64,000 bases of DNA from Kiloniellaceae bacterium (GCA_009377535.1 WHTV01000007.1:1891-65890); one strand, 5' to 3'. Shown: positions 2,743-43,215, counted from the first letter of the stretch. The notes: generated from the sequence alone by a model not told the origin. Numbers and translations: made by a program.

Positions 2743-2755
2743 TAAACACTTGATT
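2743..2755 (-). promoter_or_regulatory. IHF-consensus site
   Basis: Minus strand reads AATCAAGTGTTTA, an exact WATCAANNNNTTR match, 5 bp outside the att duplication. Confidence 0.5.
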
Positions 2756-2760
2756 TCAAA

Positions 2761-2817
2761 TGGTGCCCCTGGCCTGACTCGAACAGGCACGCCCTTGCGG
2801 GCAACAGATTTTGAGTC
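2761..2817 (-). repeat. att site: displaced 57-bp copy of the tRNA-Leu 3' half
   Basis: Matches 12864-12920 at 55/57 positions, from the anticodon arm to CCA. Confidence 0.95.
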
Positions 2818-2894
2818 AGTAGAAATACGTTTCTAGGTATTTCGCCCGTTTTCGCTGATGCTCCATTTTCCCATATAATTCAGGGATATATGCG

Positions 2895-2923
2895 TTGCAT
2901 ACCGCGAATGGGATTCGTAGACT
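2895..2923 (+). promoter_or_regulatory. putative sigma70 promoter of the integrase
   Basis: TTGCAT (2895-2900), 17 bp, TAGACT (2918-2923); the spacer holds a CGAAT-ggg-ATTCG palindrome. Confidence 0.45.
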
Positions 2924-2945
2924 TTCGCCCTGATTCGCTGTTTCG

Positions 2946-2967
2946 TGCTTACCTATTGCTTACCCGG
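2946..2967 (+). repeat. integrase arm-type site (TGCTTACC tandem), left arm
   Basis: TGCTTACCTATTGCTTACCCGG, identical to 12787-12808. Confidence 0.7.
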
Positions 2968-2986
2968 ACCGGAGTAACGTCCTCAA

Positions 2987-4192
2987 ATGAGACTTAGCCT
3001 AACCCGCATTAATGCCCTTTCCGCTGGCGCCAAGGAGTTTATCGAGTGGGATGACGAACTGCCCGGCTTTGGCGTTCGCGTGAAGCCCAGTGGGGTCAAG
3101 AGCTACGTTCTCCAATACCGGAATGCCGATGGGCTGTCCCGGCGCAAGACCATCGGCCGACATGGCGTCCAGACGGTCGAGGAAGCGCGCAAGGCCGCGA
3201 GAAAACTCAAGGCAGCGGTGGAACAAGGCGAGGACCCGGCCGCCGATTCCCGAGCGCGAAGGAATGCCCCCACTGTGGAGGCCCTGTGCGAGAGGTATTA
3301 CGAAGAGCACGCCAAGGTCCACAAGAAGCCCCGCAGCGCGAAGGAGGACCGCCGGCTTATCGACAAGCGGATCAAGCCGGCGATCGGCACCATGAAGGCT
3401 GCAGCGGTCACCCAGAATGACGTTACGAAGCTTCATCTGGCTTTGCGGAAGACGCCCTACGAGGCCAACCGCGTACTGGCCCTCCTCTCGAAGATGTTCA
3501 AGCTGGCGGAGGTATGGGGAATGCGCCCGATGGGCTCCAATCCCGTCTTGCACGTGCAGCGTTATCCGGAAAGAAAACGCGAAGGCTGCCTTGACCCAGA
3601 AGAGGTTGGCCGGCTTGACGCGGTGCTCAGCAAGGCGGAGCAGACCCGCGAGATTCACCCCACCTTGATCGCTGGCATCCGGCTCTTGTTCTATACCGGT
3701 TGCCGTCTGTCCGAGTTGGTTTCGATTCGGTGGGCCTGGGTCGATTTGTCGGCCGCTTCAGTCCGTCTGCCGGACAGCAAGACCGGCCCCAAAACAGTTC
3801 ATCTTGGAAATGAGGCGCTGCCCATCCTCACAAATCTTCCCAGGCAATCGGACTACGTTTTGCCGGCAATCAAGAACCCTGAGGCACCTCTGAGCGGCGC
3901 TACACTCGATCATGCTTGGCGGCGAGTCCGTAGCAAGGCAGGCCTTCAGGGTTACCGCCTCCACGATCTGCGCCATACCTTCGCATCCTGGGGAGTCAAC
4001 GGCGGCGAGAGCCTGCCCATTATCGGCGCGTTGCTCGGTCACCGCGAAATGCAGACTACTCAGCGCTATGCCCACCTTTCGCAATCGCCCCTCAAGAAGG
4101 CCGCAGATGACATCAACGCCCGCATGCGGGCGGCGATTGAAGCTGCGGAGAATCGTCAAAAGGCGGCGACAATAGCCCCAGCAATTGACTGA
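2987..4192 (+). CDS. tyrosine recombinase/integrase with N-terminal arm-binding domain
   Basis: FGVRVKPSGVKSY arm-binding domain; catalytic GCRLSE, HDLRHTFAS, LLGH, QRY. Confidence 0.97.
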   Translation: MRLSLTRINALSAGAKEFIEWDDELPGFGVRVKPSGVKSYVLQYRNADGLSRRKTIGRHGVQTVEEARKAARKLKAAVEQGEDPAADSRARRNAPTVEALCERYYEEHAKVHKKPRSAKEDRRLIDKRIKPAIGTMKAAAVTQNDVTKLHLALRKTPYEANRVLALLSKMFKLAEVWGMRPMGSNPVLHVQRYPERKREGCLDPEEVGRLDAVLSKAEQTREIHPTLIAGIRLLFYTGCRLSELVSIRWAWVDLSAASVRLPDSKTGPKTVHLGNEALPILTNLPRQSDYVLPAIKNPEAPLSGATLDHAWRRVRSKAGLQGYRLHDLRHTFASWGVNGGESLPIIGALLGHREMQTTQRYAHLSQSPLKKAADDINARMRAAIEAAENRQKAATIAPAID

Positions 4193-4374
4193 AGGTGGGC
4201 CGAGTTGAGGGCAAGACGTCCGGCTGCACCTGGTTTCTGGCTATATCCGCGCCCAAACCGGAAAGCGGTCGTCTGCTATCATCCAAACGCGAATCGCTGT
4301 TTGCCTAAGTCGTCGGGCACGCGCGCCCACAATGCTCAAGTACTCGTTGGCCAGAGTGAAGCGGCACTTTGCAT

Positions 4375-7300
4375 TCAATTCGTTTCCTCTGCTATGGCCC
4401 TAAGTTTAACGACGTATTCTGCCCCAAGCGGCGCTCCAACTGCTTCCGAAGTTGCGAGGAGAAGCTTTGCGATAAAATTTTGATCATCATTGGGCATCGC
4501 CAAAACTGCGTTGATGGCGGGCACGGTCTCACGTGGCCGGGAAAGACGAAAAGACTCTTTGGTAATTATTCTCTTCCATCCTGCCCGCTGCCACCTGGCG
4601 AGATAGGACGTCAGAAGGCGCTTGAAGTGGGAATAGTTGATCCGTTCGAAGAAGCGCAGTCCGATCACCCAGAATTCGTACGGTTCTATGTGCTGTTTCC
4701 CAAGAGTCCTTTTGATAATCTCAACAATTAATTGGTCGAGTTGGCCGAGAGGAGATGGCCTTCCGTGCCAATGACTAAAGACTGCCGCGCTGAGCTGCGC
4801 GGATTCCATTTCGCTGCCGAAAGCGGTTTCGAGATCGGCCATAGCCTCTGGACGGCCGGCCAGAACAGCTCGAATTCCAAAAGCAAGAATGGCATCAGTT
4901 ACCACTTGTTCGACCGCAGGATCGATAGGCGCTCCCTTTTCTAGCGCAGGCACCTGCCCTCTTTCGGGAGACAGCGGATCAAAGCGCGTCTTCAGCCGTT
5001 CCGCATTCTTGGAAATGTGTGCTGCACTCTCGACATACTTAATGAAGTGGGTCGGAAACCGATCGGAATCTAAGCTTTCAATATCCGCTTGCAAAACCCT
5101 TGAGCGAAGCTCGAATTCCATAATAGGAATTGGGCCGTGCAACAGTTGACCGCTGAGACCCCTCGCAATCCCCTCATCGAGGCCTGATCCCGCTTCGGTT
5201 ATTGCCAACAAGTACCAACTCAGATCAATGGGGCCGAGCGGCAGTTCCCGAATAGCTGGCAAGGGATCAGGATTACTGCAGGTCCCAGGCTGCATCGTAA
5301 TCGGATCCCCACCAATTTTAACGTCTATCCCTTCGATGCGCGACTGCGCCCATAGCACAGCATGACGAATGACGCGGTGGCAGTAGGCAGCGCGCAGTGT
5401 TGTGTCTGCATCGACAGCCGCCAAGGCCTCTAGGGCTTCCGCAAGCCCTCTCAACGCTCGGCCCACGCCCCCTGCCTCTAGGGCAGCCACCGCAGCATCC
5501 GCACGAAGTCCGACCGTCATAACACGCATGTCATCAGTTTCGGCGAGGCTGCCCGCGCTGTGCGCTTCGAGAAACCATTTCTCGGCTTGCGGCCACTCGT
5601 CACATTTTGCTGCACTAATTGCCGCCTCTCGCAACGCAAAAGCGCGTTCAATCGGGTTGTCGTGACCAAGTTGATCGGCTATCCCGCGAAGAATCCCAAG
5701 CGCCATCTCGTGCTGATCGTGCCGCCAATATACCTTGGCACGAGCGCGAGAAAGGATCGGGTCATCCCCTAGAACCGCCTTTGCATCATCAAGAATCGCC
5801 AGCGCCCCTTTCGCATCATCTAGATATTCATCATGCATGACTGCTCGCGCCACCCAGCATTGCACGGTGAGGGGGCGAATGCCCCAATCGCCCGTCTTCT
5901 TCGCCATGCGCTGATAGCGGACCGCGGCATCCGACGCATCTAAGTCCCCCCTACGCTCCTGCGAGACCCACGGCCCGTTGATCGATAGGGAATAGTCGGA
6001 GAAACTCTTGTCGATAGGTGTTAGCCAGATCGGCCGCTCGCTTGCATCGAGTTTATCGAGTTCGTCAATGATGTATTCCAACCGATCGACGGAAGCGAGA
6101 CCAGCACTGCCTATGCCAAACAGCGCACCGTAGAACTCCATGCGATTCCCGTCAGGCGAACTTTCGATATTGGCTTTTAGACCACTCAGGAATTGTTCAG
6201 CTTCGACCATGCTCCTAAAGCGACGAAGAAGGTTGATCCAGCCATCAAGGTAATTTGCAACACCCATCGTGCCGAGGATGGCCATAAGCGCCATTGATTC
6301 TGAGCCATTCTTCAACTCGCCCGGTGGCAAACTGCTTATCTCATTAAGCAGCGCCGCCACAACCTCGGCCGCCCTTTCCCCTTCACCCGCCGCGGCAACC
6401 ACCTTAAATTGCGCGGTCCTAAGAAATATCGAGGCGGCAAGGTTTTCTGGGAAGATCGGAGCATCAGTCCGGAAGTGGTGAAGAAGGATTAGCTGCTCAG
6501 CAAGAAGCTCAATTGTGCGAACTCCTGCTGTCAACACAGCTTGAGCGACCATGGTCAAACAGTATGGCGATTTTCCGGCGATCGCGTGCATCAGTATTGC
6601 ATCGATGTCTACAGCATCAATCCCGCTCTTCCTAAGCATCTGGAGCGCGATTTGTTCGTGGATACGTGTCTGCTCATCGGCGACCAGCACTTCACGCCCG
6701 CACCCGCTAGCCAGCGGTGAGACGCGGTAAAGATCCCTACCGATTGCTTCAATCCACGGACCAACAAGTTGATCCAAGGATTCGCCCGGGCGGGATAACT
6801 GCGGCGACAATGCACCAATTACAATCGCGAGTGACCGATTGAAGCGCCCAATGGCAATGCTTAATCGGTAGAGGAGAGTCCGCGTTTCATCTGGGAGCGC
6901 GGCGATCAAGTCTCGTCGCGCTTCATCGCGGGCTGTGTCGATGTCATCGGAAGTTATGCCGCGCCCGATTACATCACCGATCTTCTCGTCTGGCCACCCG
7001 CGCGCAGCCATCCCACTTGCAAAGGCATGCGTAAGTTGGGGGTGACCACATGCACCTGCCAAGTAGGCGAGCCGCCCCCATTTGTTGGGGTCCCCCCCAT
7101 AGATGCTAACAAGCGCGTGAGCTTCTTCTTCCGTAAAGTAAGGGCAATCGACTACGCATCGATGATCGAGCCCAATGGCCGACAATGCCTTTGAGGATGG
7201 GGGCCGATAACACGTTACAAGCGCTACACAGTCCCGACGGCGCAATGCCTCCATCACTCGACTGAGCGACAACGCAACTCCCGGATCGTCAAGTTGATTT

Positions 7301-8469
7301 AAATCTTCAAGGATAAATACCGTATATTTGATCCCGCCTATTCGGGCGAATAAGGCATCAAGGCGGCTTCGTGCTTCAGCAGCCTTGGCATCCCGAAAGT
7401 CCGCTATGACAAACGCGCCAGCGAGCGCGCGGGCCACCGCCCGCGAAACGCTTGACTTTCCAAGTCCGCTGCCACCTACGATAACGCCAGCACCAAATTG
7501 CAGGAGAGCGTCAGCCGCCGACGACTCGACGGCACTTCGGGGTACTACCGCTTTCGGGGCGGGAAGCGTGTCGCTCCTGATGAGCCAGCCAATCTCATCG
7601 CCGGGAAGAATATTGCCGATGCCTGTGGCGCCGGCAAGCGGTCTAACTAATCCTGATGCGAGTTGCCCAAGTGCCTCGACCATGGCACGCGGCATCATGA
7701 GACTGGTTGCCGCATCTATTGCTTCGTAGAGTTCGGCGCGCGTAAGAACGCGATCCCGGGGCGTTCTGATTACGCTTTTTTTCAACACCCTATAAACCAA
7801 TACATCGGCAATCCGCCGCGCCTCTGGAGCGGGAACATTGAATTTGTCTCGGCCTACGACGATTAGATGCTGTTCCAGCTCTTCGCGAAGTGTTGAAAAA
7901 TCGGGCTTACCACAAGCCCAATGTATCTTCATGAGGAGGTCGTGGCGGAGCGCATCGTCATTTCGAGCCTTGACGAACTCTCGTACCGCTTCGGGGAACT
8001 TCTCACTTTCCAACACTGCGCGGATTGGCGCAGCGTCCGCTCCAGCGGCCGCTTTCCGCCAATATTCCAACCCGGCCATCCCTGACAGGCGGTCAGCGGT
8101 CGCTTTCTCAATCGCTATTTCAGATGTGGTGAAGTACCGAAGCTCAACCCGGAGGCCAGGATTACGCTCGACAAGGTCGACAAACGCGGTGACCGCATCG
8201 CGGATGCTCCCGCTATTCAAGGTAACTGATCCAGACCTTTCTGTGTCCTTAACTTGAACGGCGTTGAGCACGCCTTCGGCTACAGTCGCATAGTCTTCGG
8301 CGACCTCCAGAAAGAGACGTCCCTTGTCGTCTAGATCGAGCCATGCAAGGGCCGCAGCCACAACCTGATACGAATACCCTCTTAGCGAATCGATCGCCTG
8401 GCGAGCAGCATCGCCCTCGGGGAAAGGTTCCGGAGTACTACCTGAGGTAAAGAGATCATCGATTGTCAT
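4375..8469 (-). CDS. Cap4/DUF4297-like nuclease - STAND NTPase - helical/TPR repeat protein (Avs-like candidate defence protein)
   Basis: N-terminal RGYSYQ...EVAED...QVK nuclease signature; Walker A GGSGLGKS (~aa 331); Walker B VFILED; STAND GxP motif GHP (~aa 474); long Ala/Leu-rich helical C-terminus. Confidence 0.75.
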   Translation of the reverse strand: MTIDDLFTSGSTPEPFPEGDAARQAIDSLRGYSYQVVAAALAWLDLDDKGRLFLEVAEDYATVAEGVLNAVQVKDTERSGSVTLNSGSIRDAVTAFVDLVERNPGLRVELRYFTTSEIAIEKATADRLSGMAGLEYWRKAAAGADAAPIRAVLESEKFPEAVREFVKARNDDALRHDLLMKIHWACGKPDFSTLREELEQHLIVVGRDKFNVPAPEARRIADVLVYRVLKKSVIRTPRDRVLTRAELYEAIDAATSLMMPRAMVEALGQLASGLVRPLAGATGIGNILPGDEIGWLIRSDTLPAPKAVVPRSAVESSAADALLQFGAGVIVGGSGLGKSSVSRAVARALAGAFVIADFRDAKAAEARSRLDALFARIGGIKYTVFILEDLNQLDDPGVALSLSRVMEALRRRDCVALVTCYRPPSSKALSAIGLDHRCVVDCPYFTEEEAHALVSIYGGDPNKWGRLAYLAGACGHPQLTHAFASGMAARGWPDEKIGDVIGRGITSDDIDTARDEARRDLIAALPDETRTLLYRLSIAIGRFNRSLAIVIGALSPQLSRPGESLDQLVGPWIEAIGRDLYRVSPLASGCGREVLVADEQTRIHEQIALQMLRKSGIDAVDIDAILMHAIAGKSPYCLTMVAQAVLTAGVRTIELLAEQLILLHHFRTDAPIFPENLAASIFLRTAQFKVVAAAGEGERAAEVVAALLNEISSLPPGELKNGSESMALMAILGTMGVANYLDGWINLLRRFRSMVEAEQFLSGLKANIESSPDGNRMEFYGALFGIGSAGLASVDRLEYIIDELDKLDASERPIWLTPIDKSFSDYSLSINGPWVSQERRGDLDASDAAVRYQRMAKKTGDWGIRPLTVQCWVARAVMHDEYLDDAKGALAILDDAKAVLGDDPILSRARAKVYWRHDQHEMALGILRGIADQLGHDNPIERAFALREAAISAAKCDEWPQAEKWFLEAHSAGSLAETDDMRVMTVGLRADAAVAALEAGGVGRALRGLAEALEALAAVDADTTLRAAYCHRVIRHAVLWAQSRIEGIDVKIGGDPITMQPGTCSNPDPLPAIRELPLGPIDLSWYLLAITEAGSGLDEGIARGLSGQLLHGPIPIMEFELRSRVLQADIESLDSDRFPTHFIKYVESAAHISKNAERLKTRFDPLSPERGQVPALEKGAPIDPAVEQVVTDAILAFGIRAVLAGRPEAMADLETAFGSEMESAQLSAAVFSHWHGRPSPLGQLDQLIVEIIKRTLGKQHIEPYEFWVIGLRFFERINYSHFKRLLTSYLARWQRAGWKRIITKESFRLSRPRETVPAINAVLAMPNDDQNFIAKLLLATSEAVGAPLGAEYVVKLRAIAEETN

Positions 8470-8486
8470 TTGTACCTAGAGTGCCA

Positions 8487-8948
8487 TCAAATGGCACTTC
8501 TGTCTTCTTCCTCCCTCTGAAACCCCTGAACGGCCAGCACGGCGCGCGCTGCCTCTTTGTCGGCTTGCTCGCGCGATAGTCCGCCCTCGAATTCCACAAT
8601 TGCGGCTCGCTCCTCGAATTCCGCAATCAGATCGCTTTCCGCAGGCGTAACAGGTGTGCGCGGTGTAATAGGTCCCCCACTATCAAGGATTTTCAAGGGC
8701 TCTGCGCCGCTTGGGGCCGTTACACCGCCCGGGTCGGGCGGTGTGCAAGGGTGTGACGAAACGGCGTATTTGCCGGCTTCCGCAACACCTTGCACACCCT
8801 GCGACGGGCCGCGTGTAACCGGCGCCAACCGCACGGATGGGGCTGAGAGGCCCGGGTGCAAGCCGGCCGTTACACCTTGCACACCCGCTACACCCTGGCT
8901 CTTGGGGGCGGGCGCGGCCCAACGCGCGAAGAGGTCACGCATTGGCAT
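8487..8948 (-). CDS. hypothetical protein overlapping ori-like repeats; C-terminal FEERAAIVEFEGGLSR motif
   Basis: Overlaps the DUF927 gene stop; EERAAIxExxGGLSR-type motifs are typically seen downstream of satellite primases (recalled, not searched). Confidence 0.6.
   Translation of the reverse strand: MPMRDLFARWAAPAPKSQGVAGVQGVTAGLHPGLSAPSVRLAPVTRGPSQGVQGVAEAGKYAVSSHPCTPPDPGGVTAPSGAEPLKILDSGGPITPRTPVTPAESDLIAEFEERAAIVEFEGGLSREQADKEAARAVLAVQGFQREEEDRSAI
8645..8895. repeat. iteron-like ACACC/GGTGT repeat cluster, putative replication origin
   Basis: ACACCTTGCACACCC at 8785-8799 and 8872-8886; inverted GGTGTGCAAGGGTGT at 8740-8754; GTTACACC at 8719 and 8869; GTGTAAC at 8813; IHF-like TATCAAGGATTTT at 8681. 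Confidence 0.55.
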
Positions 8949-11379
8949 CGCCCTCCAAGATTCGGCCGGACACCCGGTAGACCCTCACCGGCCCGTCCGA
9001 GCCCGGCAACCTCACTGGTGTGGTCGATTTGCCCGCGGAATCGGGCAGGAGATACCCCCTGTTGCGCAGCACGCGCGCGACGGATTGGGGGTCGAGCCCG
9101 GCCGCAATCTCCCCTTTGAAGACGGGCGGGAAGATCAAGAATTCACTGCCGTCCGTAGTCTGGCGGCTGAAGCCGGCGCGATTGATCGTCGGTCGCCCAG
9201 GGTCCGCGCCGTCGAGCTTGGTGAACCGGCTTTCACCGTGACGGGCCAGGAAGTCGCGGACCCGCTCAAGGGCCTCTCTCTCTTCCGCTGGGAGCACTCC
9301 GCCGCGCTGCTCCAGCCAGTCCCTAAAGCACCGCTCAGCCGCCCCAGTCGACTCTCCATCCGACCAGGGCAAGATCCCCATAACCGTTGCCAGTTCGCCG
9401 GCGGCGGCAACCAGCCCGAAGCGCTGCGCTACGCGCCTAACCTGGCCGTCGGCGTTGTTGGGGCAGATGTTCGAAACAAAGCGCTCCACGGCCTCTCGAA
9501 CCTTCTCAGCTATCGCGTCGCTGTCATTGGCGACCTTCGCAACGAAAGCCCGGATCGGTGTGCCGTAGAAGCTTCCGGAGGCCTGCTGAAGGCGATTTGC
9601 GAGGGCAGCGGGCCCTTCCATGCCATGAAGGTCTTCGAACAGCCCCAGCCCAGCCCCGGCGTCCGCCTGGAGATCAACCAGCCGCGTTTCCTGTCCCGCC
9701 TGGATACGCTTTCCGGCTTCATTCAGCTTGTCGGCCAGCGACAGCTCCCCGGTGGAAAGAAACAGCAGCTGCCAGCGCGCCGGTGGGCGCGCCATCCCGT
9801 CTTTGCGCGCTCGGCTCTTGCCTTCGCCGTTGGCCAGCATATAGGCGGCTGCACCGGCTTCGCGCCCGTCAACCTGCCCCAACTCGTCCAAGCACAGGAG
9901 GGCATGATTGTGAGCCTGGGCCGTGCCTTCCAAGCCGTTGGCGGTTGCCCGCCAAGTGCGGATATAGGGTTTGCTGCCGCCGCCCCACATGCCGCCGGCA
10001 ATCCGCAAGGCGGTTGTCTTGCCAACACTTGAGGGGCCGCGTAGATGGAAGCCGCCGCCCTCTTGCGAAACGAACGGCAGCAGCGGCGCAGCAAGCGCTA
10101 CCGCCGCCGCAAAGGCCAAGCGGGAGTTGCCGACACAATAGGACCCGATTTCACGTTGCCAGCCAGCGAGGTCGCCCGCCGGCACGAAGGCGTGATCGAG
10201 GGGACTCTCGGTCTGGAGCCGAACCGGCTCGCCCCCCGCGCCATACGTCCGGTCAGGCAGGACATAGCAGCCGCCATGCCAGCCAATCCGGGGCACACAT
10301 CGCAATCGGGCGGGCGGCGCGGTCTGAGCGATGTAGTCGTGCAGCCGGGTCTTGCTCTTGGCGCCGCCGGAAAGCGACAGACCCAGCGCCAACAGCGTTT
10401 CGCGATAGCTCGAACCGTCGCCAGCAAGCATCGCCATCGGCATTGCCCATTCGTGGGCCGCGCCATCGCGGTCAATGACGCGCAACAGCCTGCCCCACTG
10501 CTGCCCCGATCCGTCCCGAGTGTCCGCCAGCACCTCCAGGCGCGAGCAAACCGGCTTCCAATCCATATCGCCGTCGTCGGTTTCCTCGCCGTACTCGACC
10601 CCGCGGGTCGTCAGCTTGAAAGGCCAGCAAACCGAAGCCGCCGGATCGAGGAACTCGAGCAGCCGATCTTCCTGGCCGGCGGCCTCGACCAGCGTTGCAA
10701 GCTGATCCGCCTGCCAGTCGACCGGCAGCGGGTCAGCCAGGTCCCATTTCTCCGGGAAGTCGGCTGGCACCGATACGATACCTATGGAAAGCGCGCCGGC
10801 CGCCGCCGCAAGGCGGGCAACCGTCTTGGCGTAGGCCTGCCCCTCATGGTCATTGTCCGGCCAGATGACCACCGTTCGCCCTGCCAGCGGTGACCAGTCG
10901 GCCTTGTCGGCCGCTTTGGCGCCGTTGGGCGACGTTGTGCTCACGTAGGTGGGGAATAGGGCCGCAGCGGCATCAGCCGCCTTCTCGCCTTCGACGACCA
11001 GCACCGGCACGTCCGGACGTGCCGCGAGTCGGTCAAGGCCGTAGAGAGGACGGGGAGTCAGCCAACCCTTCGAGCGCCATTCCTGGTGCCCGCCGGGCGC
11101 CTTACAATACGTAAGCGGTCGGAATTCCTTGCCGGCGGGAAGGTCAACCCGCCCTACGTAACCTAACGTAAGGCCCGCAGCGTCGCGGTAGGTGTACATA
11201 GCTACGTAACGTAAGGTCTGCCCACCTACGTAAGCATGAAGGGGCGGCTCTGGCGCTTCGGCGGGGACGGGCATAACAGGCTGCCAGTCCTCCATCTTCG
11301 ACCCATTGCCCTTAGATACGTCGGCAGCGCCCAAGTCCTGGCTCGGCGCTGCCGGCTCAAACATCGCCTCACGATCCAT
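8935..11379 (-). CDS. Toprim primase - DUF927 helicase fusion
   Basis: Toprim VLVVEGEKAAD and VVIWPDNDHEG; Walker A GPSSVGKTT; DUF927 WRATANGLEG and LCLDEL. Confidence 0.9.
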   Translation of the reverse strand: MDREAMFEPAAPSQDLGAADVSKGNGSKMEDWQPVMPVPAEAPEPPLHAYVGGQTLRYVAMYTYRDAAGLTLGYVGRVDLPAGKEFRPLTYCKAPGGHQEWRSKGWLTPRPLYGLDRLAARPDVPVLVVEGEKAADAAAALFPTYVSTTSPNGAKAADKADWSPLAGRTVVIWPDNDHEGQAYAKTVARLAAAAGALSIGIVSVPADFPEKWDLADPLPVDWQADQLATLVEAAGQEDRLLEFLDPAASVCWPFKLTTRGVEYGEETDDGDMDWKPVCSRLEVLADTRDGSGQQWGRLLRVIDRDGAAHEWAMPMAMLAGDGSSYRETLLALGLSLSGGAKSKTRLHDYIAQTAPPARLRCVPRIGWHGGCYVLPDRTYGAGGEPVRLQTESPLDHAFVPAGDLAGWQREIGSYCVGNSRLAFAAAVALAAPLLPFVSQEGGGFHLRGPSSVGKTTALRIAGGMWGGGSKPYIRTWRATANGLEGTAQAHNHALLCLDELGQVDGREAGAAAYMLANGEGKSRARKDGMARPPARWQLLFLSTGELSLADKLNEAGKRIQAGQETRLVDLQADAGAGLGLFEDLHGMEGPAALANRLQQASGSFYGTPIRAFVAKVANDSDAIAEKVREAVERFVSNICPNNADGQVRRVAQRFGLVAAAGELATVMGILPWSDGESTGAAERCFRDWLEQRGGVLPAEEREALERVRDFLARHGESRFTKLDGADPGRPTINRAGFSRQTTDGSEFLIFPPVFKGEIAAGLDPQSVARVLRNRGYLLPDSAGKSTTPVRLPGSDGPVRVYRVSGRILEGDANA

Positions 11380-11692
11380 GCCGCACCCCCAGCATGTCGG
11401 CCAGCCGCCTAGCGGCCTCCCCCTGTCGAAGGCCTGCGAGATAGGCTGCGAGCGAGATCACGTCACCGCCGGCATCGCCCGTGGCGAAATCCGCCCATTT
11501 CCCAGAGGTCAGATTGATCTTGAACGATCCTGGCCTTTGGTCGGTCCTGTTGGGGTTCCGGGCAACCCACTCATTGCCTAGCAGGCGCCCATCCGGCAGC
11601 CACCGCGCCACTAGCTCCGGGAGCCGCTGAAGGGCGGCTCGATTGATTTCCGGGAAGTTGGGGCCCGGATTTTCGCTGCCTCGCTTAGACAT
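11369..11692 (-). CDS. stand-alone primase N-terminal (zinc-ribbon-like) domain protein
   Basis: NPNRTDQRPGSFKINLTSGKWADFATGDAGGDVISL; start ATG 11692 overlaps the alpA stop and its stop overlaps the DUF927 start. Confidence 0.75.
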   Translation of the reverse strand: MSKRGSENPGPNFPEINRAALQRLPELVARWLPDGRLLGNEWVARNPNRTDQRPGSFKINLTSGKWADFATGDAGGDVISLAAYLAGLRQGEAARRLADMLGVRHGS

Positions 11693-11936
11693 GCTCGGAA
11701 CCCTGGTCAGAGGTAGTCCGGCGCAGGTTAGTCTCAGCCCAGGCAATGAGGTCGCGGCGACGATAGCGGACTGCCTTGCCACCGATTTTGACGTAGTGTG
11801 GCCCCCCGCCGCTCACGCGCCAGCCCTGCAGTGCGCGGACCGAAAAGCCAATGAAGGTTGACGCCTCGCTTTCGGTCAGCAGCCGATCCAAGTAGTCCGG
11901 ATCACGTGCCAGGTTTTCGGAGATATGTTGGAACAT
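11685..11936 (-). CDS. AlpA/Xis-like HTH protein (recombination directionality factor/regulator)
   Basis: LLTESEASTFIGFSVRALQGWRVSGGGPHYVKIGGKAVRYRRRDL, a typical HTH_17/AlpA pattern. Confidence 0.88.
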   Translation of the reverse strand: MFQHISENLARDPDYLDRLLTESEASTFIGFSVRALQGWRVSGGGPHYVKIGGKAVRYRRRDLIAWAETNLRRTTSDQGSEHV

Positions 11937-11937
11937 G

Positions 11938-12012
11938 GTGTTCGCCCTTCTGCTTGCTGTTGCGATGGGCGAACGCTAGGCGGCAAAACCGCCAACAAAT
12001 ATTCCAACAAAT
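11938..12012 (-). promoter_or_regulatory. alpA leader: CCAACAAAT direct repeats and RBS-covering hairpin
   Basis: CCAACAAAT at 11992-12000 and 12004-12012; GTTCGCCC...GGGCGAAC inverted repeat overlapping the RBS. Confidence 0.4.
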
Positions 12013-12022
12013 TGGATCGGGT

Positions 12023-12781
12023 TTATTGTTTCTTGGAGGCTCGGTCAGCCTTGAAAGAGCCTGACACAACCTGCCGGATTGTCTCATCCGACAAGTCTTG
12101 AAAGACCCCGGCCCGATCCGGATAGGCCTCACAAAGATATGCGCGGATTTCAGGATACAGCCGCTTCATCGGCGCTTCGAAATCGACCTTCCCGGCAGCC
12201 TTCAGCGCCTCATAGGCGGCGAAGACTTCCGATTTGACCGAGGGGCGCCCAACCGGCCTGGGCTCGCTCCTGTCGCCCCCTGTCGGTAGGAGCAGCTCGT
12301 CGACTGCCTTGGGCTCGATAAGCCGCACCGAGACGAACTCCAATCCGCTGCCGGACACCTTGCAGCCATCCCAGTCGATCCTGCCACCCCAAACGTCCGA
12401 TGGAATCAAGGCAGGCGCGTCAGCGACGTGGCGGGGGACAACAAACCCGAGGGCAAGGACCTCGCCGGAACGAATGCCGGCGACCGTATCGGCCTGCATG
12501 CGTTCCCACGCCGCTCGCAACTTGGCGTAGTAGTCTTGATTTGGCTTCATCGCCGCAAAAATTGCGAGGAGGCCGGTGCTGATATCCGGGGCAGGTTCCG
12601 TTGGCATGCTGAAGCCGGGAGGCTTGGCCGCGCACAGCTCGCGATAGGTGCGGATGCGAGCCGGCTTGGCAAAGCGTCCGGGACTGGCCTGTAATGTCGC
12701 GGCAGCCTGCCAAAGCGATAGCCGGGCATCAGGCGTGAGGCGTCGAACGAAATCAGGGGAGAAGGCGGCGGACTTCGCCAA
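12023..12781 (-). CDS. hypothetical protein of the element (possible regulator)
   Basis: 252-aa ORF between the att arm and alpA; C-terminal GRPS...SDETIRQVV HTH-like segment. Confidence 0.7.
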   Translation of the reverse strand: MAKSAAFSPDFVRRLTPDARLSLWQAAATLQASPGRFAKPARIRTYRELCAAKPPGFSMPTEPAPDISTGLLAIFAAMKPNQDYYAKLRAAWERMQADTVAGIRSGEVLALGFVVPRHVADAPALIPSDVWGGRIDWDGCKVSGSGLEFVSVRLIEPKAVDELLLPTGGDRSEPRPVGRPSVKSEVFAAYEALKAAGKVDFEAPMKRLYPEIRAYLCEAYPDRAGVFQDLSDETIRQVVSGSFKADRASKKQ

Positions 12782-12786
12782 TTCGC

Positions 12787-12823
12787 TGCTTACCTATTGC
12801 TTACCCGGCGCCTTCTGCTTACC
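12787..12823 (+). repeat. integrase arm-type sites (three TGCTTACC), right arm
   Basis: TGCTTACC at 12787, 12798 and 12816. Confidence 0.7.
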
Positions 12824-12863
12824 TGCGCTGCGCCACTCAAAATTCGCAAGCCATTGTTTTTAT

Positions 12864-12950
12864 TGGTGCCCCTGGCCTGACTCGAACAGGCACTCCCTTG
12901 CGGGAAACAGATTTTGAGTCTGTCGCGTCTACCAATTCCGCCACAGGGGC
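12864..12950 (-). tRNA. tRNA-Leu(CAA)
   Basis: GCCCCTG acceptor stem, ACAGA-CTCAAAA-TCTGT anticodon arm, long variable arm TCCC-GCAA-GGGA, GCCTG-TTCGAGT-CAGGC T arm, encoded CCA; 87 nt. Confidence 0.97.
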
Positions 12951-41752: not shown

Positions 41753-41904
41753 CAGGGAAAAGCCGCGCTGCTCATGGGTATCCTGCGCCGAAAAGCGCAG
41801 TTTTCCACTGACTTCCGGCAAATGCCGACGCAGTTGCGAAGGAACTTGGCAGAGCCGCCCCCGTTCACGGCAGGGGAGCCGGCGCAGACTGGAGGGTTTG
41901 AGTG

Positions 41905-43215
41905 ATGGCCAAAGTGCTTGCAGGTGCCGCTAAGGGATCGAGCGAGGGCGCCGAGACGGCGGCGCCACAGCCGCCGCTGAAGGATCTCTACGAGGTCGGC
42001 GAGGTTCCCCCGCTGGGCCACGTGCCCGACAAGATGCACGCCTGGGTGATCCGCCGCGAGCGCCACGGCGAACCGGAAAAGGCCATGCAGATCGAGGTGG
42101 TCGACACGCCGAAGCTCGACAGCCACGACGTGCTCGTCATGGTGATGGCCGCGGGCGTGAACTACAACGGCGTCTGGGCCGGCCTGGGCACGCCGATCTC
42201 TCCCTTCGACGTGCACAAGGCGCCCTATCATGTCGCCGGCTCTGATGCCGCCGGCGTGGTCTGGGCCGTCGGCTCCCAGGTGAAGCGCTGGAAGGTCGGC
42301 GACGAGGTGGTGGTGCACTGCAATCAGGACGACGGCGACGACGAGGAGTGCAACGGCGGCGACCCGATGTTCTCCCCCTCCCAGCGCATCTGGGGCTACG
42401 AGACGCCGGACGGCTCCTTCGCCCAGTTCGCCCGTGTCCAAGACCGCCAGATCATGCCGCGGCCACGCCACCTGACCTGGGAGGAGAGCGGCTGCTACAC
42501 CCTGACGCTCGCTACCGCCTATCGCATGCTGTTCGGCCACCGCCCGCACATCCTCAGGCCCGGCCACAACGTGCTGGTCTGGGGCGCCTCCGGTGGCCTC
42601 GGCTCCATGGCGATTCAGCTGATCGCCACGGCCGGCGCCAACGCCATCGGCGTGATCTCCGACGAGGACAAGCGCGACTTCGTCATGTCGCTGGGCGCCA
42701 AGGGCGTCATCAACCGCAAGGACTTCGACTGCTGGGGCCAGCTGCCGCCAGTGAACAGCGAGGGCTTCGGCGACTACATGCGTAAGGTGCGCGAGTTCGG
42801 CAAGGCAATCTGGCAGGTCACCGGCAAGGGCAACGACGTCGACTTCGTCTTCGAGCATCCCGGCGAGCAGACCTTCCCGGTCAGCTGCTTCGTGGTGAAG
42901 CGCGGCGGCATGGTGGTGTTCTGCGCCGGCACCACGGGCTACAACTTGACCTTCGACGCGCGCTTCGTGTGGATGCGCCAGAAGCGCATCCAGGGCAGCC
43001 ACTTCGCCAACCTGATGCAGGCCAGTCAGGCCAACAACCTGATGGTGGAGCGACGCATCGACCCCTGCATGTCGGAGGTCTTCGCCTGGCGCGACATCCC
43101 GCGTGCCCACACCAAGATGATGAAAAACCAGCACCGGCCCGGCAACATGGCGGTGCTGGTGCAGGCGAAGCGCCCGGGACTGCGCACCCTGGAAGACGCG
43201 GCGGCAGAAGACTGA
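41905..43215 (+). CDS. ccr: crotonyl-CoA carboxylase/reductase
   Basis: KDLYEVGEVPPLG, GVNYNGVWA, WGYETPDGSFAQF, QKRIQGSHFAN. Confidence 0.97.
   Translation: MAKVLAGAAKGSSEGAETAAPQPPLKDLYEVGEVPPLGHVPDKMHAWVIRRERHGEPEKAMQIEVVDTPKLDSHDVLVMVMAAGVNYNGVWAGLGTPISPFDVHKAPYHVAGSDAAGVVWAVGSQVKRWKVGDEVVVHCNQDDGDDEECNGGDPMFSPSQRIWGYETPDGSFAQFARVQDRQIMPRPRHLTWEESGCYTLTLATAYRMLFGHRPHILRPGHNVLVWGASGGLGSMAIQLIATAGANAIGVISDEDKRDFVMSLGAKGVINRKDFDCWGQLPPVNSEGFGDYMRKVREFGKAIWQVTGKGNDVDFVFEHPGEQTFPVSCFVVKRGGMVVFCAGTTGYNLTFDARFVWMRQKRIQGSHFANLMQASQANNLMVERRIDPCMSEVFAWRDIPRAHTKMMKNQHRPGNMAVLVQAKRPGLRTLEDAAAED

Follow-up and report, generated by a model that had tools for sequence, protein, structure and literature searches.

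What is the function of the one large gene carried by a 10-kb element integrated at a tRNA-Leu gene in the 64,000 nucleotides of Kiloniellaceae DNA analyzed here (the window)? A preliminary description had proposed that its product, which we call P0001, joins a Cap4-like nuclease to a STAND NTPase and a repeat sensor, and that it represents a new Avs-like anti-phage system carried by a satellite. We consider it likely that P0001 acts as an Avs-like (antiviral STAND-type) immune receptor, complete in one intact protein and armed with a nuclease effector. It is an uncharacterized protein of the Avs3/Avs7 architecture and no new kind of system.

The gene and the element that carries it

The gene is a single intact open reading frame that starts with ATG, encodes 1364 aa, and occupies exactly the interval given in Table 1. 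A word-indexed search returned 564 matches, and relatives fell into 2373 representative clusters at E≤1e-3; 868 of these passed E≤1e-30. Because so many homologs exist, most of them co-linear across about 1340-1375 aa, we regard the frame as a real gene and not as a chance frame. No model in PADLOC, Pfam, or NCBIfam spans the protein, and searches of PADLOC 2.0, Pfam, NCBIfam, and PDB sequences turned up no named homolog. As had been noted, the GC content of the gene (0.54-0.57, about 0.55) is low. The flanks are at about 0.65, with 0.65-0.67 between 8.5 and 11 kb and 0.62-0.65 on the left side of the island, and the gene also lies below the rest of its element.

P0001 was delivered to this site by the tRNA-Leu element, which is bounded by a 67-nt att repeat (2754-2820, 91% identical to 12857-12923) and whose integration site is empty in a congener. 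The element encodes an integrase (Phage_integrase, 9.4e-24, and Arm-DNA-bind_3, 8.9e-15, in Pfam; phrog_1, 2.2e-64) and a primase-helicase (DUF927, 3.9e-80, in Pfam; phrog_1139 DNA primase, 2.9e-97). The ORFs of 153, 137, and 252 aa had no significant match in Pfam or PHROG; related elements keep the C-terminal part of the 153-aa ORF behind their primase, and the most closely related element also has the 137-aa ORF beside its primase, with 70% identity. P0001 is the last gene of the leftward operon of the element and lies 17 nt past the 153-aa ORF, which follows the primase; the palindrome over the stop of that ORF ends 10 nt ahead of the P0001 ATG.

Table 1. Positions in the window of the P0001 gene, its domains, and the features of the tRNA-Leu element
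Feature	Position	Strand	Evidence
Displaced partial copy of tRNA-Leu 3' part (att repeat, left island end)	2754..2820	-	Repeat search
22-nt perfect direct repeat, copy 1; two TGCTTACC half sites, candidate integrase arm site	2946..2967	+	Repeat search
Tyrosine integrase with arm-binding domain	2987..4192	+	Pfam, phrog_1
P0001 gene, 1364-aa nuclease-NTPase-sensor protein (stop codon included)	4375..8469	-	ORF listing, homologs
All-alpha TPR-like solenoid, candidate sensor, aa 597-1364	4378..6681	-	AF2, fold matches, profiles, conservation
Winged-helix domain, aa 506-596 (three helices and beta hairpin)	6682..6954	-	AF2 secondary structure, conservation
Helical lid, aa 446-505, invariant G475-H476-P477 (GxP-type motif)	6955..7134	-	AF2, conservation
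P-loop nucleotide-binding domain, aa 296-445 (Walker A G332-S339, Walker B D/E388-D389, T419)	7135..7584	-	AF2, profile, Foldseek
Cap4/DUF4297-type PD-(D/E)xK nuclease domain, aa 23-255	7705..8403	-	PADLOC LmuA, Foldseek, motif conservation
Palindrome with 9-bp stem, AGTGCCAT-TTG-ATGGCACT, over stop of 153-aa ORF	8479..8499	.	Sequence
153-aa ORF with short internal repeats, directly upstream of P0001	8487..8948	-	ORF, repeat, related elements
Toprim and DUF927 primase-helicase, P4-alpha-like replication protein	8935..11379	-	Pfam, phrog_1139
137-aa ORF, start uncertain, weak CHC2 zinc-ribbon similarity	11369..11782	-	Conserved beside primase
83-aa HTH_17 protein, excisionase/AlpA-type regulator	11685..11936	-	Pfam HTH_17 5.4e-9, phrog_66 9.2e-7
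252-aa ORF inside island	12023..12781	-	No Pfam/PHROG family match
22-nt perfect direct repeat, copy 2	12787..12808	+	Repeat search
Intact tRNA-Leu(caa) (integration site, right island end)	12864..12950	-	tRNA, repeat, congener empty site

Phage satellites and P4-like or PICI-type islands carry defense cargo (Rousset et al. 2022, PMC9122126). The element resembles them in being small, tRNA-integrated, and att-bounded; in having the P4-like/PICI-like set of an integrase, an AlpA/excisionase-type HTH regulator, and a P4-alpha-like primase-helicase; and in carrying one large, compositionally foreign gene of defense type. It differs from P4-like and PICI elements in that no psu/delta/sid, capsid-remodeling, terS, or packaging genes were recognized; the Pfam and PHROG searches of the element revealed no capsid-redirecting, small terminase or packaging, or helper-exploiting gene. 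Its host, a marine Kiloniellaceae-like alphaproteobacterium, lies outside the taxa in which such satellites were defined. The element may plausibly be a phage satellite.

Three modules in one chain

All of the motifs listed in the preliminary description were located in the translation, and the AF2 models and Foldseek searches agree with the layout it had proposed, a Cap4-like nuclease followed by a STAND-like NTPase with a winged helix and a helical-repeat sensor. The conservation figures that follow are drawn from 82 diverse family members with identity down to 26%.

The N-terminal domain is a predicted Cap4/DUF4297-type PD-(D/E)xK nuclease. Its motifs (A25-IDSLRGYSYQ35, E55-VAED59, and Q72-V-K74) make up the complete signature, that is, the GxxYQ helix, the acidic E...D strand, and QxK, and the signature is kept family-wide, with G31, Y32, Y34, Q35, E55, D59, Q72, and K74 conserved at 94-100%. 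The PADLOC LmuA model PDLC03848 (Cap4-type) matched aa 23-251 with an E value of 2.3e-11; Pfam Cap4_nuclease and NCBIfam DUF4297_antiphage each gave 14 bits, against cut-offs of 26.2 and 300, respectively. In Foldseek the nuclease fold was clearly matched by HerA-DUF4297 (9c1m) and LmuA (9nxx/9hr5) and also by the N terminus of Avs3 (8dgc).

The middle of P0001 is predicted from its model to be a NOD module composed of a P-loop domain, a lid in which GHP is invariant, and a winged helix. The AF2 model of the N-terminal part (pLDDT 90.5) contains the nuclease, a five-strand P-loop core (strands within aa 327-441), the lid (447-502), and the winged helix (508-590). The motifs are G332-GSGLGKS339, V383-FILED389, L417-VTCYR422, and G475-HP477, of which K338 is conserved at 100%, D389 at 96%, T419 at 95%, and G475-H476-P477 at 98-100%. 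The LVTCYR sensor that had been pointed out is thus present in P0001, but its arginine, R422, is kept in just 45% of the family. On the helix after the winged helix, H604 is 87% conserved; it is a candidate MHD-like histidine, a role that we infer.

Is this NTPase a STAND protein, as had been claimed? In a Foldseek search with the N-terminal 660 aa, the top match was SeAvs3 (8dgc_A; E 1.3e-9, 759 aligned columns), below which came HerA-DUF4297 (third), MalT, CED-4 (TM 0.53 by target), the Pyrococcus STAND-TPR protein 6mfv, LmuA, and resistosomes of plant NLRs; every one of these ranked above FtsH, p97, and Rix7. The ESM Atlas neighbors of P0001 were Cap4+AAA_22 and NB-ARC+TPR clusters. The sequence profile of the P-loop core, on the other hand, was nearest to classical AAA+ proteins (VCP-like, E 1.4e-11, in a PDB profile search), with no solved STAND protein among the best 60 PDB matches, and the Pfam nSTAND models matched few members, 1-3 of 32, and those weakly (nSTAND3, 3 of 32; nSTAND5, 2 of 32). 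Assignment of the core to STAND by sequence, the sensor-1 arginine included, therefore fails. The STAND layout, a tripartite NOD followed by a repeat sensor, is nevertheless present in the model, and it is the fold, together with the GxP motif and the winged helix, on which the STAND call rests.

The C-terminal 765 aa are modeled as a TPR-like solenoid (pLDDT 94.5, all-alpha). In fold searches this model retrieved generic TPR proteins only and matched no solved Avs sensor, 8dgc included; TPR profile matches were weak. Because the sensor is unlike any solved Avs sensor, P0001 is not Avs1-5, and the sensor offers no pointer to a trigger. Invariant within it are Q687, R947, and the loop P1061-G-x-C-S-N-P-x-P1069; for Q687, R947, G1062, S1065, and P1069, a host-factor site and a small-ligand site are equally possible.

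A mobile family and the rival explanations

The P0001 family is large, unnamed, and horizontally mobile across phyla: its members, about 1350 aa throughout, are spread over phyla that intermix in the family tree, and some copies reside on megaplasmids. None of the other 126 species genomes in the order of the host contains a member, nor does any of the 50,697 phage records searched. In keeping with the claim that there is no partner, the gene stands alone without a conserved neighbor; among 80 family loci no partner gene is conserved, and the commonest neighbor cluster occurs in five. Copies often adjoin RM, DISARM, and TA genes, and direct neighbors include RM methylases, type I S subunits, DrmMI, RES, AbiEi, and nSTAND3. 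One copy lies within a type I RM operon; others are found beside UvrD/MTase/HepT-MNT, SNF2/DUF1156/DUF499, or PIN-TPR/PLD genes, and some adjoin transposases, integrases, or TA modules. A DUF927 primase is a neighbor in only one of the 80 loci, that of the window, and the family is not typical satellite cargo.

Could P0001 instead be a defense nuclease driven by an AAA+-type ATPase, a hydrolysis-driven ring or remodeling motor on the model of HerA-DUF4297 and other nuclease-NTPase systems? The repeats would then not read a phage protein and would serve as a scaffold or as a binder of nucleic acid or a host factor. The family profile does match VCP-like proteins, Cdc48, p97, Rix7, and midasin from Walker A to sensor 1 (E 1e-11 to 1e-7), among weak matches Pfam AAA (PF00004) occurs most often (17 of 32 members), T419 occupies the polar sensor-1 position of AAA+ proteins while R422 is not conserved, and HerA-DUF4297 is the third fold match. 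Past sensor 1, however, the consensus lacks the classical AAA+ arginine fingers; a winged helix after the lid together with an invariant GxP is STAND- or ORC-like rather than classical AAA+; STAND proteins rank above AAA+ proteins in the fold search; and the standard STAND sensor layout places a TPR solenoid, here of 765 aa, on the chain that carries the NTPase. We therefore consider a motor of this kind unlikely.

It is also rather improbable, in our judgment, that the main beneficiary of the gene is the mobile element rather than host immunity, with P0001 acting in addiction or stabilization or else attacking competing elements, which could be plasmids, other islands, or, during mobilization of the element, the helper phage itself. 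Consistent with such a role are the position of P0001 at the end of the operon of the element, its GC content below that of the rest of the element, and the family copies on megaplasmids and beside transposases, integrases, and TA modules. But no such element is linked to the gene in 79 of the 80 loci, so that its function cannot depend on the element, and no antitoxin-like partner is conserved; moreover, a role of this sort overlaps an Avs-like mechanism and does not exclude it. Very improbable is a role outside immunity, as a STAND regulator or housekeeping nuclease, for instance a MalT-like, ligand-controlled switch acting on host DNA metabolism. MalT and MalT-like TPR clusters are among the fold and feature neighbors, and the invariant sensor residues could build a small-ligand pocket, yet P0001 has no DNA-binding output domain; the Cap4-type nuclease effector is known from defense systems only, according to Pfam and PADLOC descriptions and PMC13581612; the spread across phyla is patchy, and none of the 126 other species genomes in the order has the family; and its loci lie in defense-island neighborhoods.

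For the receptor that we favor, we infer anti-phage activity and a trigger by analogy with SeAvs3 and SeAvs7. In the resting state, the sensor and an ADP-bound NOD would keep the nuclease inactive. Upon infection, the solenoid would clasp a phage-made protein, opening the NOD for ATP binding and oligomerization, with a tetramer as the probable product. Gathered in this way, the Cap4 domains would cut double-stranded DNA without sequence specificity, halting phage replication at the cost of the cell. As accessory cargo, the gene would guard the pair of host and element from phages that the element cannot exploit.

There is a small chance that the family is a separate lineage whose sensor site recognizes a target that is not a phage structural protein. 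Its NTPase stands between classical AAA+ and STAND: the core is AAA-like in sequence but lacks arginine fingers and a conserved sensor-1 arginine, whereas a winged helix and a lid with GxP are present. The invariant sensor site might bind a conserved host factor (compare EF-Tu, which Avs7 co-opts), a nucleic-acid end, or a small molecule. If so, the trigger logic would be one so far undescribed for nuclease-armed NLR-like proteins.

Relation to Lamassu, Avs3, and Avs7

LmuA of Cap4-type Lamassu is the nearest sequence match to the nuclease domain (E 2.3e-11). LmuA and DUF4297, however, are separate proteins that need SMC (LmuB) or HerA, whereas the nuclease of P0001 is fused to its NTPase and sensor. 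Lamassu is ruled out: no SMC-type LmuB is conserved in the 80 loci, and the neighbors in the window are an integrase and a primase module.

Like P0001, SeAvs3 (8dgc) combines a Cap4-type nuclease at the N terminus, a NOD, and a TPR-like sensor at the C terminus in one polypeptide. Avs3 is longer, as had been stated (2028 aa in chain 8dgc_A versus 1364), identity is only 12%, and the P-loop core of P0001, unlike that of Avs3, is AAA-like by sequence. That no characterized Avs matches P0001 over its full length is borne out: no AVAST, Avs, or Dsr1 model in PADLOC matched (AVAST at E≤0.1), and the sensor retrieved only generic TPR proteins. With no AVAST match, no 8dgc match for the sensor, and the difference in length, identity with Avs3 is ruled out, and because a search with the modeled sensor fails to bring up that of Avs3, nothing leads us to expect that P0001 senses terminase. 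P0001 is less novel than had been proposed: although uncharacterized and not Avs1-5, it is one of a very large family of unnamed proteins that share the architecture of Avs3 and Avs7.

Finally, Lee et al. (Nature 2026, PMC13581612) describe SeAvs7 (1523 aa) as a Cap4 nuclease (aa 2-225), a STAND NTPase, a winged helix, and a TPR sensor. There, SeAvs3 and SeAvs7 are Cap4-STAND-TPR tetramers, and Avs7 is modeled as an autoinhibited monomer that becomes an ATP-bound tetramer cutting dsDNA. Its bilobed sensor (aa 561-1523) is common to Dsr1 and occurs with at least 20 different effectors, whereas the P0001-type sensor was found solely with its own N terminus and the PADLOC Dsr1 models do not match P0001. 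The Avs7 structures 9N00, 9N01, and 9YIX were absent from the fold and sequence matches of P0001, possibly because they are missing from the libraries. The same paper reports a census of STAND defense families with 198 defense-associated clades and 684 sensor clusters, which probably already contains the P0001 family. Sizes are comparable and motif spacing is similar (K292/D358/R395/H545 in SeAvs7 versus K338/D389/(R422)/H604 in P0001), and, by analogy, the mechanistic model for Avs7 would be the best template for P0001.

The P0001 gene and the element that carries it

The gene for P0001, the 1364-aa nuclease–NTPase–sensor protein, lies where the preliminary description had placed its frame, and every motif listed there is found in the translation. 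The frame is intact and its motifs are all conserved, which rules out a pseudogene or a chance reading frame; as judged from its sequence, the ORF is a real gene. Its GC content is 0.54–0.57, lower, as had been claimed, than that of the adjacent primase region (0.65–0.67) or of the DNA outside the island (0.62–0.65). A word-indexed search returned 564 relatives, more than 120 of them full-length at 50–63% identity, and when 1.84 billion representatives were searched exhaustively with HMMER, 2373 clusters matched at E ≤ 1e-3, of which 868 passed E ≤ 1e-30. The relatives found by HMMER are mostly co-linear with P0001, are 1340–1375 aa in length and extend down to 28% identity.

P0001 is carried by an island at tRNA-Leu(caa). 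At 2754–2820, 67 nt repeat the 3' part of the tRNA gene and match 12857–12923 at 91%. DNA synteny across the genus is mostly too divergent, and one genome (G105) yielded an empty tRNA-Leu(caa) site: at locus L106 (1501–3098) the left flank, the tRNA gene and the right flank are contiguous (76% identity over 1569 nt). Therefore, the stretch from 2821 to 12856 is an insertion of ~10.0 kb. Just within the ends of the island is a perfect 22-nt direct repeat, TGCTTACCTATTGCTTACCCGG, each copy of which (2946–2967 and 12787–12808) contains two TGCTTACC half sites; the copies are candidates for the arm-type sites bound by the integrase.

P0001 is the final gene of a leftward operon and starts 17 nt past the 153-aa ORF. 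The C-terminal part of that ORF (~45–65 aa) is conserved directly past the primase in two related elements (L101 and L102), so the ORF belongs to the element backbone. GC falls at the cargo junction, at the same place as a palindrome, AGTGCCAT-TTG-ATGGCACT (8479–8499; 9-bp stem), which overlaps the stop codon that closes the 153-aa ORF and reaches to 10 nt from the P0001 start; an operator, a hairpin and a recombination scar are all possible readings of it.

Homologues of the primase occur in nine other genomes of the host's order, in gene orders unlike that of the window, and what lies past the primase in these related elements includes genes for a ParB-like protein, an RTX protein, a transposase, a T7-type scaffold protein and unknowns. 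Among relatives of the island primase, the closest is at locus L099 (G117:C12); it is 48% identical and has the same primase-linked 137-aa companion ORF. At 7198–7947 of L099, 2 kb from the primase relative, a gene encodes a T7-type capsid assembly (scaffold) domain; the replication module may therefore have some relatives that reside in phage-like elements or in elements encoding a capsid. The gene set of the island resembles those of P4-like and PICI-like satellites. No helper-exploiting gene was recognised among the island genes, nor is there any sign of helper dependence, so the island is treated here as a hypothetical satellite.

Features of the island (window coordinates) and of P0001 (aa positions)
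Feature	Position	Strand, source or remark	Mean pairwise identity (82 members)
P0001 gene	4375..8469	(-); 1364 codons, ATG start; ORF listing	
Tyrosine integrase with arm-binding domain (Arm-DNA-bind_3)	2987-4192	+	
153-aa ORF	8487-8948	short internal repeats, e.g. 8780-8799 and 8867-8886	
Toprim-DUF927 primase-helicase	8935-11379	DUF927 3.9e-80, phrog_1139 2.9e-97	
137-aa ORF	in island		
HTH_17/excisionase-type protein, 83 aa	in island		
252-aa ORF	in island	no assigned function	
tRNA-Leu(caa), intact	12864-12950	-	
AIDSLRGYSYQ	aa 25-35	translation	
EVAED	aa 55-59	translation	
QVK	aa 72-74	translation	
GGSGLGKS	aa 332-339	translation	
VFILED	aa 383-389	translation	
LVTCYR	aa 417-422	translation	
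GHP	aa 475-477	translation	
Alpha/beta nuclease domain	aa 26-255	N-part model	0.41
Helix + disordered linker	aa 277-292	N-part model	
P-loop core, five strands	aa 296-441	N-part model	0.28
Helical lid	aa 447-502	N-part model	0.37
Winged helix: three helices + beta hairpin	aa 508-590	N-part model	0.41
Sensor			0.19-0.33

Predicted domains of P0001

In Pfam, P0001 matched AAA (E 0.005) and Cap4_nuclease (E 0.058), both under the cut-off, and its sole NCBIfam match was DUF4297_antiphage, at 14 bits. In PADLOC 2.0 the model for LmuA, the Cap4-type nuclease of Lamassu, matched aa 23–251 (E 2.3e-11), and the AVAST/Avs, Dsr1, bNACHT and PDC models gave no match. Sequence searches of the PDB returned nothing useful with the single protein, only AAA+ and weak DUF4297 matches with a full-length or an N-part profile, nothing meaningful with a profile of the lid and winged helix, and only weak TPR matches with a sensor profile.

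We folded two alignments of 82 diverse members, one of the N-terminal 660 aa (A2) and one of aa 600–1364 (A3). The N-part model (pLDDT 90.5, pTM 0.79) resolved the domains in the table, and the C-part model (pLDDT 94.5, pTM 0.90) is a solenoid of ~40 helices with one small hairpin. The top Foldseek match of the N-part in the PDB is terminase-bound SeAvs3 (8dgc_A; E 1.3e-9, 759 columns, 12% identity), followed by HerA-DUF4297 (9c1m), MalT (8bob) and CED-4 (TM 0.53 by target), then by the Pyrococcus STAND-TPR protein 6mfv, LmuA (9nxx, 9hr5) and plant NLR resistosomes and, lower, by FtsH, p97, Rix7 and RFC at ~1e-4. Fold matches of the C-part were generic TPR proteins (Ctr9, Ski3, APC/C subunits and IFIT5; E ≥ 1.5e-4, TM ≤ 0.3), with no Avs sensor among them. 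The proposed nuclease–NTPase–sensor architecture is thus borne out by the model folds, and the STAND label by fold only. Across the 82 members the nuclease signature (G31, Y32, Y34, Q35, E55, D59, Q72 and K74) is 94–100% conserved, K338 100% and D389 96%, so that both predicted enzymatic activities, nuclease and NTPase, are under selection family-wide.

The evidence on whether the NTPase is of the STAND or the AAA+ type is mixed. Counting for STAND are the lid followed by a winged helix in the N-part model; the GxP-type motif G475-H-P477 in the lid, 98–100% conserved among the 82 members; H604 (87% conserved), which is in an 'hHE..IA' helix just past the winged helix and appears to occupy the position of MHD-type histidines; and the presence of a TPR sensor on the same chain as the NTPase, together with the fold ranking. 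By sequence, on the other hand, the best PDB matches of the family profile are classical AAA+ proteins (VCP-like at 1.4e-11, Cdc48, p97, Rix7 and midasin), no solved STAND protein is among the top 60, and the commonest weak Pfam match in members is AAA (17/32, against 3/32 for nSTAND3, 2/32 for nSTAND5 and 1/32 for nSTAND1). Yet classical AAA+ arginine fingers are absent from the family consensus. The arginine of LVTCYR, previously read as sensor 1, does not hold family-wide: only 45% of members have it. For T419 the conservation is 95%. From sequence and model together, we conclude that the NTPase is a NOD-type module (P-loop domain, lid and winged helix) with a core that stands apart in its sequence. 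With its AAA+-like sequence and STAND-like fold, it is a test case for the relationship between NLR-type switches and other AAA+ ATPases.

Strictly invariant in the sensor, aa 597–1364, among 82 members with identity down to 21%, are Q687, R947, G1062, S1065 and P1069. A non-helical loop, PG-x-CSNP-x-P (aa 1056–1075; window ~5245–5304), breaks the solenoid and holds the last three of these residues. A Pfam scan of the C-terminal half gave no match, the sensor alone found only generic TPR and MalT-TPR clusters in the ESM Atlas (all <0.9), and nothing in the sensor pointed to terminase, portal or capsid as the trigger. Nor was there any sign of effector swapping: in a homology search with the sensor alone, the only matches were sensors joined to their own N-terminus and some C-terminal fragments of ~770 aa. 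At two loci, L034 (10001–15319) and L045 (10001–15225), the family gene is broken into two ORFs and contains ~1.2 kb of additional DNA; these are probably insertion-disrupted copies, and the stand-alone ~770-aa database proteins are likely to be fragments of split genes of this kind.

Distribution and neighbourhoods of the family

The family ranges over Alpha-, Beta- and Gammaproteobacteria, Latescibacterota, Binatota, Acidobacteriota, Planctomycetota and others. Its members include a 1365-aa 'AAA family ATPase' of Cupriavidus sp. 30B13 on CP188224.1 and the product of the gene at NC_018696.1:369319-373398, and there are homologues in Pseudomonas, Paraburkholderia and Agrobacterium. With P0001 as query (E ≤ 1e-20), the gene was not found in any of the 126 further species genomes of the host's order. 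In a tree of 67 full-length members built with FastTree, P0001 falls in a clade (support 95) that also holds copies from Latescibacterota, Binatota, Bdellovibrionota and Acidobacteriota, and cross-class pairings are many. Copies also occur on megaplasmids of Rhizobiales and Burkholderiales, where they are annotated 'hypothetical protein', 'AAA family ATPase' or 'tetratricopeptide repeat protein'; none was found among 50,697 phage records.

Each of five homologues that lie on long contigs is a solitary gene with surroundings of the defence type. One is within a type I RM operon, adjoining HigB/HTH; another adjoins UvrD, an N6/N4 methylase, HepT/MNT and ResIII; a third has an SNF2/NOV_C helicase on one side and DUF1156/AAA_15/DUF499 on the other; a fourth has PIN-TPR-GreABC and PLD genes nearby; and the fifth has HTH_3 genes on one side and a lipase-like gene on the other. 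A scan of one genome per species found relatives in 137 species, from which 80 loci were retained, and all ORFs within 5 kb of the family gene were clustered. The commonest neighbour cluster occurred in only 5 of the 80 loci, and therefore there is no conserved partner gene, in keeping with the single-gene status originally proposed. The 145 nearest neighbours include RM methylases (N6_Mtase 4, Eco57I 3, MmeI 3), type I S subunits, DrmMI (3), RES (2), AbiEi (2), T5orf172 (2), nSTAND3 and AAA_13; the association with defence genes is a qualitative one. Among the same 80 loci, a DUF927 primase adjoins the family gene in the window's copy only, and an integrase lies within 10 kb in only three others. 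Carriage by satellites is therefore not characteristic of the family.

The crotonyl-CoA carboxylase/reductase (Ccr) encoded at 41902–43215 of the window is 92–95% identical to Kiloniellaceae/Pelagibius proteins, which identifies the host as Kiloniellaceae/Pelagibius-like, of a marine alphaproteobacterial family. The host assembly, in 317 contigs, is probably a MAG. The window is a clean example of a defence-type gene brought in by an element that is minimal, tRNA-integrated and equipped with a P4-alpha-like replication module, and it extends the pattern of mobile elements carrying defence cargo to a poorly studied host group.

Comparison with known receptors

SeAvs3 and SeAvs7 are Cap4–STAND–TPR proteins that are autoinhibited in the apo state and form ATP-bound tetramers, in which the assembled Cap4 domains cut dsDNA (PMC13581612). 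By analogy with these two proteins, we infer that P0001 works like an Avs: the solenoid would bind a phage-made protein, the NOD would open and take up ATP, P0001 would oligomerise, and its Cap4 domains would cleave DNA, aborting the infection. It is not Avs3 proper, from which it differs in sensor, size and model matches; as for Avs7, PADLOC 2.0 gave no match to a Dsr1-type sensor. The absence of any AVAST/Avs match in PADLOC 2.0 and of an Avs sensor in the fold search upholds the earlier view that it is distinct from the characterised Avs types. The LmuA match notwithstanding, Lamassu is ruled out because the LmuB partner is absent.

The analysis itself shows the domain folds, the conserved catalytic signatures, the solitary gene, its mobility and its defence-type neighbourhoods. 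The P0001 family is best filed as an uncharacterised one among the nuclease-armed STAND-like receptors, a class already known. The survey by Lee et al. (Nature 2026, PMC13581612), whose seeds included BLAST matches to Cap4, distinguished 589 STAND clades, of which 198 are associated with defence, and 684 sensor clusters. Its text names no family matching P0001, and the family is probably already in that census. The preliminary interpretation is upheld in part, as to architecture, single gene and distinctness, and its claim of novelty was overstated: Avs3 and Avs7 already exhibit this architecture and the likely mechanism, and current concepts are unchanged. The Avs families that have been tested are mostly enterobacterial in origin. 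If active, the P0001 family would add to the known set a widespread, environmentally dominant Avs-like receptor.
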